This document shows positions 13,283-21,412 of a DNA stretch of 27,143 nt, piece by piece. This stretch comes from an uncultured archaeon (GTDB lineage: Archaea; Asgardarchaeota; Thorarchaeia; Thorarchaeales; Thorarchaeaceae): contig CAZSWP010000024.1 in assembly GCA_964610875.1 (NCBI GenBank), positions 31,170 through 58,312 of the forward strand. The letters are read 5' to 3'. The notes below the pieces were generated by a model. That model saw only the letters and a program-made list of their open reading frames with translations, had not been told where the DNA came from and made no database searches. The position numbers and the translations under genes were made by a program. The stretch's first letter is position 1, and the number at the start of each line of letters is the position of its first letter.

Positions 13283-14674
13283 CTAGCCCCTACCAAAGAA
13301 TTGCCTGTGTACTGCTTTCACTGCTTTCTCTACAGCATCATTATCGACAATGAAGTAGTAGGCAACTTCTGATGCACCTGCAGAGAACATCTCTACATTT
13401 ATTCCAGCATTAGCAACAGCTGAGAAGACTTTAGCAGCAAGACCTTTCGTAGTCAAGAGACCCTCACCTACGACTGCAATGAGGGCAAAATCATCTCGCG
13501 GTTGGATTCGCTCAATCACTCCACCAGTCAGGTCTTTCAGTGTTGTTTCTGCCCTTCTAAGGTCTTCTTTTGCCAATAATAGATTGATACAGGTCTGAGC
13601 TGTTATTACCGAGAAAATATTGATTTTTGCGTCGGACAACCTTCGACCAATATCTCCAATTATTCCTGGTTTATAACCAACACCTGCACCATGGATTCTC
13701 AGCACTGCTACAGATTTATTGAATGTCACACTCTTTATGACATCTCGTTTAGTATGACCATTCTCCTGTACAACTGTGACACTATCTGGTTGGTCTAGGT
13801 TCTTTACAAAGATCTTGATGGCTGTGCTAATCAAGGGCTCAACTGTTCTTGGATGAAATACTCTTGCACCAAAATATGACAGTTCAGCTGCCTCAAGATA
13901 AGAAAGAGTTTCGACCGTCTTAGCTGAATTGATGACCTCAGGGTCAGCAGTCATGAAACCGTCAACATCTTTCCATATGTGAATCTCTTCAACATCAAGT
14001 ATTCGAGCTATGGCAGCAGCACTATAGTCAGACCCATTCCTACCGAAGGATGTTGTCTTGCCATCGGATGCACACCCGATGAATCCGGTGATGATCGGGA
14101 TTGTTCCTTGTTGCAACAGAGGTAGCAAATGTTGTTTGATATTTTCAGTTGCCATAGAAAAATCGACTGCTGCATTTGAACAGACCGAATCGGTGACAAG
14201 ACCAATCTTATCTGCATCCAAAGATTTTGCTTTTAAACCATTACTGATCAGCACACCAGTCAACAACAGGGATGCTAGTCGTTCACCATAACTGAGAACG
14301 AGCACATGTATTGTTTCAGTCACTTCACCAGTATATGCAATTCCGTAGAGTAGACGTTTCATTTTCTCAAGTCTTGCATCAAGTCCTGTCAAAACCTTTT
14401 GTCGAACTTGAAAATCAGTCACCGTCTTCATTAATATGGTAAGATGGAGATTACGAATACCTTCGAGTATTGGTTCTATCTTTTCATCCGAGTCAAGAGC
14501 TGAGTTGATTGCGGACTCTAGAATATCAGTCACTCCGTTGATTGCTGAAACAACCACAACAGGAGGAACAGGATAACTCTCTCTGAGAATCTCTGTGACT
14601 CTGAGAAAGGCATCCTCAGACTTGAGGCAGCCACCTCCGAATTTCATTACAACAGGCTTGGAAATCTGACTCAT
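13283..14674 (-). CDS. lysC: Aspartate kinase with two ACT domains
   Basis: VMKFGG, VVVVSA..GVTD, SYGERL, GFIG...GRNGSDYSA, WKDVDGFMTADP, EAAELSYFGARVFHP and C-terminal ACT repeats. Its ATG overlaps the asd stop (TAATG). Confidence 0.93.
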   Translation of the reverse strand: MSQISKPVVMKFGGGCLKSEDAFLRVTEILRESYPVPPVVVVSAINGVTDILESAINSALDSDEKIEPILEGIRNLHLTILMKTVTDFQVRQKVLTGLDARLEKMKRLLYGIAYTGEVTETIHVLVLSYGERLASLLLTGVLISNGLKAKSLDADKIGLVTDSVCSNAAVDFSMATENIKQHLLPLLQQGTIPIITGFIGCASDGKTTSFGRNGSDYSAAAIARILDVEEIHIWKDVDGFMTADPEVINSAKTVETLSYLEAAELSYFGARVFHPRTVEPLISTAIKIFVKNLDQPDSVTVVQENGHTKRDVIKSVTFNKSVAVLRIHGAGVGYKPGIIGDIGRRLSDAKINIFSVITAQTCINLLLAKEDLRRAETTLKDLTGGVIERIQPRDDFALIAVVGEGLLTTKGLAAKVFSAVANAGINVEMFSAGASEVAYYFIVDNDAVEKAVKAVHRQFFGRG

Positions 14675-15726
14675 TATAGTACCTCCTTTGCTTGTGCAAA
14701 TTCAGCATTCAGCATAGAAGCTCCTGCAGCACCACGAATGGTATTATGAACAAGCAGAAAGAAACTCAAACGGCGTCCTGATTTTCGCAAACGCCCAATC
14801 TGTATACCCATCCCAACATCTTTAGAATCTATAATGAGGTCTCTTGTAGGTTGTGGTCGGTCATCTTCTAGATGGACAATGATGGGCTTAGCAGGAGCGG
14901 TTGGAAGCTCTAATTCTTGAGGTTCACCGGAAAAGTTACTAAATTCATCTTTAATCTCATCGATAGAAAATTTCTTTTCCAGCTCTACAACCACACTCTC
15001 AAGATGGCCATTTACCACAGGCACTCGTGCACAACTTGCTGTTACTTGAAATTTTGCAGGTGAGATTCGATTGTCTTCCGCCACTCCAAGTATCTTTCGA
15101 GTTTCGGATTCAATCTTTTCTTCCTCTCCAGATATGTATGGAATCACATTGCCAAGAATGTCTAGTGATGCTACTCCACGACGACCAGCACCAGATATCG
15201 CTTGATACGTTGATACAGTCACATGTTTTATGCCAAATGACATCAATGGCTTCAAACCGAAGACTAGACCTGAAGTTGTACAATTGGAATTCGTAACAAT
15301 GAAGGCATCATCATATTCTTGGTTGTGAACCAGATCAAGATGTTCAGGATTGATATCCGGAATAAGGATAGGTACATTCTCTCTCATCCGATGGGCACTA
15401 GCATTTGAGAATACTGGAATGCCAAACTCTGCAAAATCAGATTCGATTTCTGAAGCTATTCCACCAGGGAGAGCACTGAATACGAAATCAATCTCATTTT
15501 CCAATGCAGTTTCCACAGAAGAGTGCACTAATTCAAAGGAACAGATTTCTTCAGGAACCCTATCGGACACAATCCAATCTGTGGCATTCTCATACTTCAT
15601 CCCGATGGAATGTTCAGATGCCATGAGAAGCGAGGTTTCAAAATATGGATGGTTCTCGAGTAATCGTATGAACTGCTGACCCACCATTCCTGTGGCACCA
15701 AGTATTCCAACTCGCAGTTTACCCAA
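14674..15726 (-). CDS. asd: Aspartate-semialdehyde dehydrogenase (archaeal/fungal type)
   Basis: ILGATGMVGQ, SNASAHRM, catalytic NSNCTT, TYQAISGAG, CARVPVVNGH, DRPQP and HNTIRGAAG. The TTG at 15726 lies 7 nt after GGGGGT. Confidence 0.95.
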   Translation of the reverse strand: MGKLRVGILGATGMVGQQFIRLLENHPYFETSLLMASEHSIGMKYENATDWIVSDRVPEEICSFELVHSSVETALENEIDFVFSALPGGIASEIESDFAEFGIPVFSNASAHRMRENVPILIPDINPEHLDLVHNQEYDDAFIVTNSNCTTSGLVFGLKPLMSFGIKHVTVSTYQAISGAGRRGVASLDILGNVIPYISGEEEKIESETRKILGVAEDNRISPAKFQVTASCARVPVVNGHLESVVVELEKKFSIDEIKDEFSNFSGEPQELELPTAPAKPIIVHLEDDRPQPTRDLIIDSKDVGMGIQIGRLRKSGRRLSFFLLVHNTIRGAAGASMLNAEFAQAKEVL

Positions 15727-16453
15727 ATACAATACCCCCTTCTATTTTTGATATCAAATCATAGTCGACTCGTGCACGAACAATATTTGGCATATCACCA
15801 TAAATCCCAATTGTTTCTCCAATAATTACCATCATGCCCTCAACTTCTATTGTCTGCAATTCTCTCAAAGCAGCATCAACATGTTCAGAATCAACTTCAA
15901 CCACTGCATTTCCAAGAGCCGTAGCAGCTGCATCTGCTAGAGCTACATCTGTTGCATAGACAGTCGCAGCGTCTGCAAACCCCATACTCATTGAGTGCCC
16001 TACAATACCCGATGACGTACAGATTCCAAAGGTTTTACCAAGTCGCTCCACTCGGAGACCTAGATTCTTGAGACCTTTCTGTCCCGTGTAGATACCCACT
16101 GTTATTGGGTGTGTCAAATGCATTGCAATATCACCACCATTATCAAACACGACATGCTCAGCACCAGCATCAAGTGCATCTTCAACGACTTGTTGAGCTA
16201 TGGCACCAGCTACAGCAGCCATAGGACCAACCCCAACCCGAGCTGCTGCCATCGTCATTCGTTTCACGATGTCAGGAGAACTCTCTGCTATATCAGTTGG
16301 GCAGAGTGTTGATTTGAAGAAGGAATCAGAATTAATATACTGAATCAGGTCATCATGTGCCCTCTTCACAGAGTCCTCAATTACTGGTAGAAACTCCTTG
16401 TCCACAATGACGTTCGCTATTGTTTCACCTATATTTAGAGAATATCGTTCCAT
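15719..16453 (-). CDS. UPF0280 / ApbE-like protein (Methanosarcina MA1715 homologue, sulfide assimilation)
   Basis: GVGPMAAVAGAIA, DNGGDIA, GICTSSG.VGHS.S.G.ADA and LADAAATA. The ATG at 16453 follows GAGGTG; alternative starts are 16459 and 16462. Confidence 0.88.
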   Translation of the reverse strand: MERYSLNIGETIANVIVDKEFLPVIEDSVKRAHDDLIQYINSDSFFKSTLCPTDIAESSPDIVKRMTMAAARVGVGPMAAVAGAIAQQVVEDALDAGAEHVVFDNGGDIAMHLTHPITVGIYTGQKGLKNLGLRVERLGKTFGICTSSGIVGHSMSMGFADAATVYATDVALADAAATALGNAVVEVDSEHVDAALRELQTIEVEGMMVIIGETIGIYGDMPNIVRARVDYDLISKIEGGIVFG

Positions 16454-16463
16454 TTGCATCACC

Positions 16464-17816
16464 TCAGCTCCTTACTACAATAGCCCGATGGGGACATATG
16501 TCACGACACTCACCGCAACGCACACATAATCGGGGATCATCAATCACTCGCCAATGTGCATCCCGTGTGAATACTCCTGCTGAGCAGTAAGATATACAGA
16601 GACCGCAATGCACACATCGTTCAGTTGCTCTGTAGACAAACTGTCCATTTGGTACAGTAAGCTGGGCTTTGGGACCTGCAAAGGTGCTTTGTGGTTCTCT
16701 TTGTACCATTGTCTTTGCAGATTCAGAGGCACTAATTCGTTCTACCGCTTCTGTAAGTTTGAATGCTCCTTTGGAAATCTTCTGTTTCAACTCATTTGCA
16801 ATCTTTTCTGCAACCCGAAAACTTGACACTGGAGCAACAGGTACCTCTGTATTCTGAATCTCAATGACCCCGGACTTCAATTTTGCATAGGTTGTGTCTG
16901 CAAGTGCAGGACGTTCTCTTGAGAGTAAGCTGTAATCAAAGACCTTTGTCTTTATTTCTGCATCTGTGATTGCGGTGGACTTGGCTATATCAGCATTCAA
17001 AACGGGGATTGGAACTCCAACACCCACAAAGAGTGTGCATCCATATCCAGTCATGGTAGCACCTTTGAGATACTCTGAACTCATCCTCTTCAGATTTCCT
17101 TGGACCATTAGTGTTCCAAAACCAGTAGCAGGACTATGTTGAGTGCCACTACCAACAATGAAACCTTCCCCACCACCAAGGAAAATTCTTGTGCCAATAC
17201 CAATTGTACGAAATGTAGGGTCGTTTATGATAGGGGAGAGTTCCCCAGCTCCTGAAAAAGTTGCATTCCCTTTGTCCGCGAGAAGTTTTCCCATGTAGGT
17301 GTAGAGAGTCTTTCCAGTAGTATTGGTAGCAACTCCATAACGCTCGTAACAATTTCGAGGGTTAGCTAGGATGGCTTGGTTTAGCTCATCCATTCTAATC
17401 TCTACATCGAGTTCTTTTCGGGGATAGCAGTCAGTACCGTATGCTTCTGCTTTAAGATGCACGGACTTTCCACTTACAAGATCTTCAATGACATGTCCAC
17501 CTCCATATTCGAACTCATAGGATTCTGAGAGTTGAGTTGCACCTAGATATGCGTCAACAGCCGCCACTGCTGCGTAAGCCTCTACATCGTTCAACCAAAC
17601 ACGTGACATCTTCATAGGAGGTTCACTATGTCCAAAGTTCATCCAGACTCCGGACGAGCACATAGCACCAAAAGTACCGGTAGTGACAACGTCTACTTCT
17701 ACAGCAGCTTTGTCGGCACCCAGTTCTGCAACAATTTCACTCATCTCCGCAGCAGTCACAACGCGAACACTGCCGTCCGATATCTTCTCGTTAATCTCAT
17801 TCACTGTCTTGTTCAT
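16464..17816 (-). CDS. L-aspartate semialdehyde sulfurtransferase (DUF39 homocysteine synthase, MA1821/MJ0100 family) fused to a C-terminal 2x[4Fe-4S] ferredoxin
   Basis: EINEKI, VVTAAEM, VDVVTTGTFGAMCSSG, YGGGHVIEDL, GTDCYPR, NPRNCY, SGAGELSP and TIGIGTRIFLGG. The C-terminus has CVHCGLCISYC and CVRCGECRDICP. No CBS pair. Confidence 0.9.
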   Translation of the reverse strand: MNKTVNEINEKISDGSVRVVTAAEMSEIVAELGADKAAVEVDVVTTGTFGAMCSSGVWMNFGHSEPPMKMSRVWLNDVEAYAAVAAVDAYLGATQLSESYEFEYGGGHVIEDLVSGKSVHLKAEAYGTDCYPRKELDVEIRMDELNQAILANPRNCYERYGVATNTTGKTLYTYMGKLLADKGNATFSGAGELSPIINDPTFRTIGIGTRIFLGGGEGFIVGSGTQHSPATGFGTLMVQGNLKRMSSEYLKGATMTGYGCTLFVGVGVPIPVLNADIAKSTAITDAEIKTKVFDYSLLSRERPALADTTYAKLKSGVIEIQNTEVPVAPVSSFRVAEKIANELKQKISKGAFKLTEAVERISASESAKTMVQREPQSTFAGPKAQLTVPNGQFVYRATERCVHCGLCISYCSAGVFTRDAHWRVIDDPRLCVRCGECRDICPHRAIVVRS

Positions 17817-18064
17817 TTGAAAACCTCCTAGTCCATCGAACGAGATACGAAAGTGACCCCCTACGGTCTATAGGTGGAGTGTCCCTTCTATCCACTAGAT
17901 CTAGTATCCACTAGTTAGATAGAGAGCCTTTGTCTGCTTCACGCAAGTCATCTAGAGTATGATAGATATAGTACACCCGAACCAGCCACGATGGTGGCAA
18001 CGACTCATGTCGTCGGCCTTCGCGACTTGCCTATGTTTAGAATTCGTATCTCGGTTCGTATGGC
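17817..18064 (-). ncRNA. Candidate structured cis-regulatory 5' leader RNA (riboswitch-like, class unrecognised)
   Basis: Closing stem 18063-18043 / 17851-17833 (19 bp, two 1-nt bulges). Inner stem 18030-18024 / 17949-17943. Tetraloop hairpins at 17999-18014 and 17985-17998. Further hairpins at 17887-17923 and about 17854-17883. It is bounded by the TATA box and the SD. Confidence 0.6.
17824..17828 (-). promoter_or_regulatory. Shine-Dalgarno GGAGG of the homocysteine synthase gene
   Basis: The minus strand reads TAGGAGGTTTTCAAATG. Confidence 0.8.
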
Positions 18065-18086: not shown

Positions 18087-18094
18087 GTATATAA
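18087..18094 (-). promoter_or_regulatory. TATA box of the homocysteine operon
   Basis: TTATATAC on the minus strand, with purine-rich GGGAATAGG upstream (BRE-like). Standard spacing predicts a start near G18064, in a pyrimidine-purine step. Confidence 0.6.
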
Positions 18095-18180
18095 CCTATT
18101 CCCGAAGCTTCCGAGTATGACAACTCTGTTGCAAAATGAACAAACACTGGGCAATGAGGTCATAGTTCACTACAGCTAAA

Positions 18181-18271: not shown

Positions 18272-21412
<3,141 letters not shown>

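Follow-up and report, generated by a model that had tools for sequence, protein, structure and literature searches.

A 5' leader RNA with two competing, co-evolving pairings upstream of the homocysteine operon of Thorarchaeia: a candidate translational switch

The window, by which we mean the whole stretch of 27,143 nucleotides that was analysed, comes from a Thorarchaeota metagenome-assembled genome. The archaeal host proposed from the letters alone is borne out by the closest loci, which are those of Thorarchaeota, and by an archaeo-eukaryotic primase large subunit encoded in the window. The leader considered here stands before an operon on the minus strand (Table 1), the first gene of which encodes a HcyBio (DUF39) protein fused to a ferredoxin domain. 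This HcyBio has no CBS pair, and HcyBio with CBS is found in relatives elsewhere in the phylum. The second gene encodes a 247-aa protein that is matched in NCBIfam solely by 'hypothetical' models, and its orthologues are recorded as PF27030 AbpE_bact, ApbE-like. The gene set of the operon fits the route from aspartate semialdehyde to homocysteine via DUF39, ferredoxin and COG2122 (PMC5764234), and the assignment of the leader to a DUF39/HcyBio-asd-lysC operon, made by an earlier sequence-only reading of this DNA, was confirmed by the Pfam and NCBIfam gene content. The HcyBio-ferredoxin operon is present in 15 of the 87 Thorarchaeia genomes searched. Directly upstream of it in the window, on the same strand, lies a full-length LacZ-type GH2 beta-galactosidase gene (1045 aa, 18272-21409), the linkage of which to the operon is not conserved in other genomes.

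Table 1. Features of the homocysteine operon, its promoter and its leader (positions are those of the window)
Feature	Position	Strand	Basis
Operator-like block CATACTCGGAAGCTTCGGGAAT	18098..18119	-	directly upstream of TATA; kept in 14/16 orthologous loci
TATA box TTATATAC	18087..18094	-	sequence; fixed spacing in aligned promoters
Inferred 5' untranslated leader of 248 nt, start G18064 through the last base ahead of ATG	17817..18064	-	fold z -3.71, conservation
Arm A, 5'-terminal GCCAUACGAACCGAGAUACGAA, strand pairing with X or Y	18043..18064	-	GCCA invariant in all leaders
Arm X AUCGUGGCUGGUUCGGGUGU, candidate internal partner of A, weak in own copy	17973..17992	-	duplex and family permutation
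Arm Y UUCGUAUCUCGUUCGAUGG, partner of A	17833..17851	-	ends 4 nt (ACUA) before GGAGG; co-variation
Shine-Dalgarno GGAGG	17824..17828	-	GGAG(G) conserved in aligned leaders
Coding stretch +14..+33 UGAAUGAGAUUAACGAGAAG, codons 5-11, pairable by released own arm Y	17784..17803	-	duplex energy
Operon gene 1, HcyBio (DUF39) fused to 2x[4Fe-4S] ferredoxin domain	16464..17816	-	Pfam PF01837 at 2.5e-141 and Fer4 families
Remaining operon: 247-aa ApbE-like (COG2122-type) protein, asd, lysC	13283..16462	-	Pfam, NCBIfam

Reading along the minus strand, an operator block is followed by the TATA box, a 22-nt spacer, TGCCA (the G of which is 18064), an untranslated stretch of 248 nt, GGAGG and the ATG; GCCA occupies 18064-18061 and the ATG 17816-17814. 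In archaeal promoters the TATA box is centred about 26 nt upstream of the start, with a pyrimidine at -1 and a purine at +1. Here T18065 and G18064 lie about 30 nt after the first T of TATA, and the distance from that T to the G of GCCA is constant in the aligned promoters of 16 loci. TGCCA stands at the inferred start in all 16 loci first collected. This conservation of the promoter supports G18064 as the presumed transcription start, and with it the earlier prediction, correct in its coordinates, of a start near 18064 from a TATA box at 18094-18087. The sequencing runs listed for this stretch are DNA runs from microbial-mat and sediment metagenomes, with no RNA run among them.

What had been missed in the earlier reading is the conserved operator upstream of the TATA box. 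Operator, TATA and a spacer of about 22 nt before TGCCA are common to 14 of the 16 loci, while the other two (L034 and L035) have no operator, keep the leader, and carry a TATA-like box at equal distance from TGCCA, so that the transcriptional layer and the RNA layer are separable. The operator pattern occurs at one to three sites per genome in 51 of the 87 Thorarchaeia genomes, and the reversed pattern, used as a control, at 0. Thirty operator sites were fetched as loci, and the downstream gene was Tes, a radical-SAM tetraether lipid synthase, at 15 of them, HcyBio at nine, and a 79-aa ORF followed by asd (L111) at one, with the remaining five having no assignment. A metagenome scan with the promoter pattern gave mostly Tes loci and only one further homocysteine leader. 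Because the same operator stands before the Tes gene, a DNA-binding regulator probably acts at this block as well, adding transcriptional control, and the operator common to Tes and the homocysteine operon points to a small undescribed regulon. In the Tes genes of Thorarchaeia (in the window's own genome L082:1501-1640, G000:C1:128495 onward; also L090-L102 and L103-L132) the same operator and TATA block is followed by a leader of about 70 nt with a conserved hairpin, AAUACCACCCUGUUCAGUGGUGGUA. Within the window's own leader, AUCAUACUCUAGA (17955-17968, minus strand) agrees in 9 of 11 letters with the operator's first half, CATACTCGGAA; this repeat is absent from the other 15 leaders and may be due to chance.

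Folded as RNA, the 248-nt leader has a minimum free energy (MFE) of -83.6 kcal/mol, compared with -67.4 +/- 4.4 kcal/mol in 200 dinucleotide shuffles (z -3.71; one shuffle was as good), which agrees with the highly base-paired RNA that had been read by eye. All energies given here are nearest-neighbour predictions. The sequence-only reading had placed its elements correctly throughout, namely the TATA box, CCAUACGAACCGAGAUACGAA at 18063-18043, UUCGUAUCUCGUUCGAUGG at 17851-17833 and GGAGG at 17828-17824, all on the minus strand, and the near-perfect 19-bp terminal stem that it had proposed, enclosing about 190 nt and ending 4 nt before the Shine-Dalgarno sequence (SD), appears in both the MFE and the centroid folds. 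Its inner helices fared less evenly. GCAAGUC (18030-18024) and GACUUGC (17949-17943), and the hairpins GACGAC-AUGA-GUCGUU (18014-17999) and GCCAC-CAUC-GUGGC (17998-17985), again on the minus strand, are rightly located, and the pairings of GCAAGUC with GACUUGC, of the GCCAC hairpin and of CCUA with UAGG are possible, but some of the inner helices are replaced in the MFE fold.

A search of Rfam 15 gave 0 matches in the window at gathering score, and only chance-level snoRNA matches between 17600 and 18400 at E<=10; nine orthologous loci gave no match at E<=1, and SAM-I (RF00162) has no match anywhere in the window's own genome. The earlier statement that no SAM-I, SAH, lysine, TPP, cobalamin or T-box consensus could be recognised by eye holds, and the absence of a match extends to the Rfam families as a whole, including SAM-I to SAM-VI and SAM/SAH. 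The leader is present once in the 3.75-Mb genome, and a search for relatives at the DNA level in 40 related genomes turned up nothing beyond short, chance-level matches (14-44 nt). A MITE or other dispersed repeat, which had been named as a possible alternative, was rejected on these grounds. An internal TATA-like box was found in none of 16 leaders, and a run of at least five T in only three of the 16, the window's own leader not being one of them, so that neither a second promoter nor an oligo-T attenuator is a feature of the family; a transcription attenuator or an archaeal oligo-T terminator was accordingly rejected. A leader peptide was also rejected, the mini-ORF AUG-AAN-UAG at the 5' end being seen by eye in clade A only and not conserved.

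The comparative analysis is based on 16 distinct upstream regions that were collected first and three that were added later (L111, L135 and L137), giving 19 leaders, and most of the statistics refer to the 16. These orthologous leaders, found upstream of the HcyBio/asd operon in Thorarchaeia, are 185-304 nt long and share one design. A structured 5' leader is conserved before metabolically coherent genes in the 19 cases, and the long-range stem is kept, with changed sequence, in the 19 orthologous leaders. One of the later loci (L111:1500-2100, G007:C16) has the same promoter and a leader with two partners for its 5' arm, and in its operon a 79-aa ORF that belongs to no known family comes first and asd next, with no HcyBio gene. 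At the HcyBio-Fer4 loci of Hermod- and Promethearchaeota, the upstream regions are short and different, and the leader therefore seems to be specific to Thorarchaeia.

Within clades, identity between leaders is 0.73-0.93 in arm A, 0.60-0.90 in the apical domain and 0.60-0.80 in the 3' arm. The 4-fold sites of HcyBio within clades are only 0.31-0.51 identical, which is near saturation, compared with 0.60-0.93 for the leader. Identity so far above that of the 4-fold sites indicates that the whole leader is constrained, though different between lineages, and judged against these sites the apical domain and the leader are under purifying selection. Between lineages, conservation is limited to the 5' GCCAAnGAA, a CUUCUCUG-like motif (12 of 16) and the SD, and CAAGRGA-like and YAUCRA-like internal motifs are found in some clades only. 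One genome (G085) contains two copies of the operon with leader (L077 and L080), between which the coding 4-fold identity is 0.80 and that of the apical leader domain 0.72.

The sense strand folds better than the antisense strand in 13 of the 16 leaders, and the family rods, with 31-41 predicted pairs in each of the 16, contain 62 G-U pairs. These two observations suggest that the structure acts as RNA, and they sustain the preference of the sequence-only reading for RNA structure over a DNA palindrome. It is hardly credible that no RNA element is present and that the complementarity reflects a DNA palindrome, a mobile repeat or chance. The window's own leader would suit such an explanation, with sense and antisense arms about equal (-32.8 versus -34.5) and only 2 G-U pairs in its rod; against it, the element is single-copy and stands at a constant position with respect to promoter and SD at 19 loci, the family shows the G-U pairs and the greater stability of the sense strand, and the co-variation described below is significant.

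MAFFT and RNAalifold applied to all 16 leaders gave 0 pairs, the sequences being too divergent, and ungapped, anchored alignments of the arms gave no conserved pairs. Because plain alignment fails, pairing was tested by cross-pairing and permutation. For the window's own leader, the A:Y duplex (first 30 nt versus the 40 nt before the SD) is predicted at -26.3 kcal/mol, compared with -14.4 +/- 2.9 kcal/mol in shuffles (z -4.0, p about 0.002), and A:Y reaches p<0.05 in 14 of the 16 leaders, with a mean z of -3.1 against dinucleotide shuffles. When the first 50 nt were paired with the 62 nt before the SD, cognate A:Y duplexes had a mean of -32 kcal/mol and between-clade non-cognates one of -20.1 +/- 4.1 kcal/mol, the cognate duplex being the best of its row among between-clade non-cognates in 14 of 16 leaders. 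Permutation across nine lineages, with one leader each, gave p about 4e-5. The 3' end of Y lies 0-5 nt before GGAG in all 16 leaders. Sequence conservation is confined to the base of the helix (GCCAAnGAA with UUCnUUGGY), and the remainder varies. The predicted long-range A:Y helix is, by this measure of co-variation, conserved. In the closest relatives of the window's HcyBio (71% identity; L135:1108-1330 and L137:38-260), there are three successive copies of GGUUCU-N-UGGY, each of them complementary to the 5' end GCCAAAAGAACC.

A second candidate partner of arm A, which we call X, lies inside the leader. Across the family, A:X (first 30 nt) has a mean z of -2.1 against shuffles and reaches p<=0.03 in five of nine lineages, and the permutation over the nine lineages gave p values of 4e-5 to 5e-4. 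An earlier cross-test of A against internal sequence had given a mean z of -0.3 with a partition that cut the X site in several clades, as against -2.1 with better bounds. In the three leaders added later, X is found at p<=0.007 and both pairings at p<=0.02. The X site is located 64-164 nt before the SD, and 68-109 nt before it in every leader except the window's own, where X is weak (-17.6 kcal/mol, z -1.4, p about 0.09). In most lineages X co-evolves with A, unlike a by-product. Compensatory change within clades is nearly absent: the 30 pairs predicted in clade A show none, and each fold of clade B shows a single such pair. For clade B, which is represented by three close sequences, 93-94% of cells are paired in either fold, compared with 30-47% when the partners are slid.

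Of the A nucleotides that pair in the smaller of the two duplexes, 79% on average also pair in the other, and A:X and A:Y therefore exclude each other. The constrained A:X and A:Y ensembles differ by at most 5.1 kcal/mol in eight of the 16 leaders; the strongest bias in the family is that of the window's own leader, which favours A:Y by about 10 kcal/mol. In folds of the growing transcript, A is on X before Y exists in all 16 leaders (with only 6 pairs in the window's own) and then on Y. Once the SD and early coding sequence have been added, A returns to X in seven of the 16; at that stage six of the seven have the SD mostly paired, and L065 has it open.

The predicted consequence for the ribosome-binding site was examined by forcing either pairing in 16 leaders. 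The mean probability that the SD is unpaired was 0.71 with A:Y forced and 0.38 with A:X forced; accessibility was higher in A:Y in 11 leaders, with no gain in the other five. In the clade consensus folds with A on X, ACUUCU pairs with GGAGGU (clade A) and CUCY with GGAG (clade B). At the family level the exclusive pairings do change the predicted access to the SD, while the window's own copy, in addition to its non-significant X, has the SD predicted open in both folds (0.64 against 0.73). Controls with non-cognate pairing of the anti-SD were uninformative, the SD being the same everywhere. In-silico deletion of arm A gave an SD accessibility of 0.32 versus 0.26 in shuffles, with no drop beyond base composition. 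We also considered whether a released Y might pair with early coding sequence. This duplex is predicted at -33.1 kcal/mol with z -3.0 in the window's own leader only, the mean z across 16 orthologs being 0.0, and Y:early-coding pairing was rejected as a family feature.

These leaders thus contain two mutually exclusive pairings that both co-evolve with arm A and that alter how accessible the SD is predicted to be. This arrangement resembles an expression platform, and to that extent the riboswitch-like architecture put forward by the sequence-only reading stands. Our preferred reading, to which we give an even chance, is that the leader is a two-state RNA switch acting on the translation of the Thorarchaeota homocysteine operon; the start site, the formation of both folds in the cell and translation as the output are what we infer from the models. 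According to this scheme, transcription would begin at G18064 from a promoter made up of the operator block and TATA, and arm A (about 25 nt), being made first, would pair with X once X has been transcribed. When Y is transcribed, A would shift to Y and form the long rod. With A on Y the SD would be free and translation ON, and with A held on X the pyrimidine-rich Y would be free to cover the SD, giving the OFF state. A would be the anti-anti-SD, Y the anti-SD and A:X a P1-like closing helix, following the logic of a translational OFF riboswitch. In the window's own copy, a freed Y would cover codons 5-11 in place of the SD. This copy is the weakest case of the family, with its weak X, its bias towards A:Y and an OFF-type pairing limited to the non-conserved one between Y and codons 5-11.

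The one-sidedness of the window's own leader is what a static rod would lead one to expect. A:Y would in that case bury the 5' end, shield the mRNA from 5'-end-dependent decay and keep the SD clear, with X only transient and regulation taking place at the operator. Besides the preference of this leader for A:Y by about 10 kcal/mol and its open SD in both folds, the conserved operator is consistent with such a rod, as is the SD accessibility of native leaders (0.45, compared with 0.29 when the upstream part is shuffled); it is also general knowledge that 5'-terminal helices stabilise bacterial mRNAs, the ompA leader being an example. However, in most lineages X has changed together with A, many leaders are bistable or have two folds of nearly equal energy, purifying selection acts on the apical domain, the leader persists at L034 and L035 where the operator is missing, and 185-304 nt would be a costly 5' cap. 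We consider the static rod fairly unlikely. Compared with ompA-type stabilisers, the leader is similar in that a helix takes in its 5' end, starting at about nucleotide 2. It differs in that those stabilisers are short local hairpins, whereas the partner in the leader is about 200 nt away, adjoins the SD and competes with a second co-evolving partner.

The length of the rods also raises the question of processing, in which an imperfect rod of about 35 bp would be cut by a double-strand-specific nuclease to give an mRNA with a short leader or a stable RNA of about 200 nt. Rods of the predicted size are present in all 16 leaders, and an RNase III-domain protein is encoded in the window's own genome and in 79 of the 87 Thorarchaeia genomes and is absent from four archaeal control genomes. 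The nuclease is, however, near-universal in the class and the leader is found on this operon only, so that the link between the two is merely permissive. A role as a processing site would moreover leave arm X unexplained, and no bulge-helix-bulge motif was seen in the rods when they were inspected by eye. We regard processing as highly improbable. The RNase III-domain protein of the window's genome has 229 aa (L133:1120-1809; G000:C13:36218-36904), with C-terminal PF00636/PF14622 above cut-off.

Returning to the two-state switch, what might hold A on X has to be considered. In a metabolite riboswitch, the domain closed by A:X would be the aptamer, binding SAM, methionine, homocysteine or another end product of this kind, and the ligand would lock A on X and turn translation off. 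Translational OFF riboswitches are built in the way seen here, with a P1-like closing helix (A:X), an anti-SD strand (Y) and the SD, and the product of the operon is a methionine precursor. The HcyBio has no CBS pair, so feedback might have moved to the RNA, and we may speculate that GCCAAnGAA and UUCnUUGGY, the most conserved nucleotides, which flank a small bulge or internal loop, form a pocket. Known aptamers are recognisable across phyla. Here, by contrast, the enclosed domain is conserved neither in sequence nor in shape between lineages of a single class, and its fold z-scores scatter around -1, not consistently better than shuffles, which tells against a metabolite-binding aptamer, one of the options left by the sequence-only reading. 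Further points against it are that no Rfam aptamer was found in the leader or its orthologs, that the genome has no SAM-I element, and that the leader is found on one type of operon only, it being the operator and not the RNA that recurs at a second gene. A metabolite riboswitch seems to us very doubtful. Because the enclosed domain is constrained within lineages and not between them, we lean towards A being held on X by a co-evolving partner (a protein, possibly a tRNA) or by kinetic control rather than by a universal small-molecule pocket.

T-box leaders are recognised by a specifier loop, by the T-box sequence itself, which is conserved, and by a UGGN bulge, the pairing partner of the tRNA's NCCA end. 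There is no match to T-box RF00230 in the window or the orthologous leaders, and the UGGY motifs in X and Y pair with the leader's own 5' GCCA. That the leader is a true sensor RNA, in which a ligand, either a small molecule or an uncharged tRNA, would set A on X or on Y, is quite unlikely in our opinion. The same low expectation attaches to a form of sensing in which the NCCA end of the uncharged tRNA would compete with the 5' GCCA for the UGGY boxes in X and Y. Were the leader a sensor after all, an outcome to which we again give little chance, it would be the first riboswitch-class element of the Asgard archaea and, among archaea in general, the first to serve the methionine/SAM branch.

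The proposed switch may be compared with several known systems. In the thiM TPP riboswitch of E. coli, a strand of the closing helix serves as anti-anti-SD, the anti-SD pairs either with it or with the SD, and the output is translation initiation. By analogy, the leader would follow the same three-strand logic with translation initiation as its output. It differs from thiM in having no conserved aptamer and no TPP match, in using the very 5' terminus of the transcript as its switching strand, in an ON helix that takes in the entire leader of about 200 nt, and in its host, an Asgard archaeon. The hok mRNA of plasmid R1 (tac/fbi and ucb/dcb elements) is a toxin mRNA in which the switch is triggered by 3' trimming and is read by an antisense RNA. 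There, as is predicted for the leader, a 5'-terminal element pairs with a distant downstream element, metastable folds occur during transcription, and re-pairing of the 5' end decides access to the SD; in the leader, however, the operon is a biosynthetic one and the distant partner belongs to its 5' UTR, next to the SD. The SAM-I and T-box families terminate transcription or sequester the SD through conserved cores, and the cores of SAM-I (RF00162) and the Met T-box (RF00230) are absent from the window and the orthologous leaders.

To our knowledge, few RNA-based regulators are known in archaea. Among the papers listed by a full-text literature search, none concerned an Asgard riboswitch, as judged from titles and the openings of abstracts, and no published description of such a leader element was found in the literature search. 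The leader RNA family of Thorarchaeia is real, conserved and apparently undescribed, and it provides unusually clear comparative evidence in which one 5' arm has two co-evolving and mutually exclusive partners, one of them abutting the ribosome-binding site. If the switch is true, it would make post-transcriptional control open to testing in the prokaryotes most closely related to eukaryotes, and would offer a handle on the feedback of methionine synthesis where the CBS pair has been lost from the enzyme.

Operons with the same gene order are also found in bacteria (Aminicenantes and Clostridiales; L066:2880-3003, L067:2880-3003 and L069:2875-3003), with HcyBio proteins that are 57-59% identical. 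Their leaders have no Rfam match and are a candidate undescribed motif. All three have in common a 5' hairpin, GCCCGAAUA...UAUUCGGGA, located directly after a TGnTAtAAT-like -10 box, and this hairpin is followed by a C-rich stretch that pairs with the SD in the MFE folds of L066 and L069, and not in that of L067.
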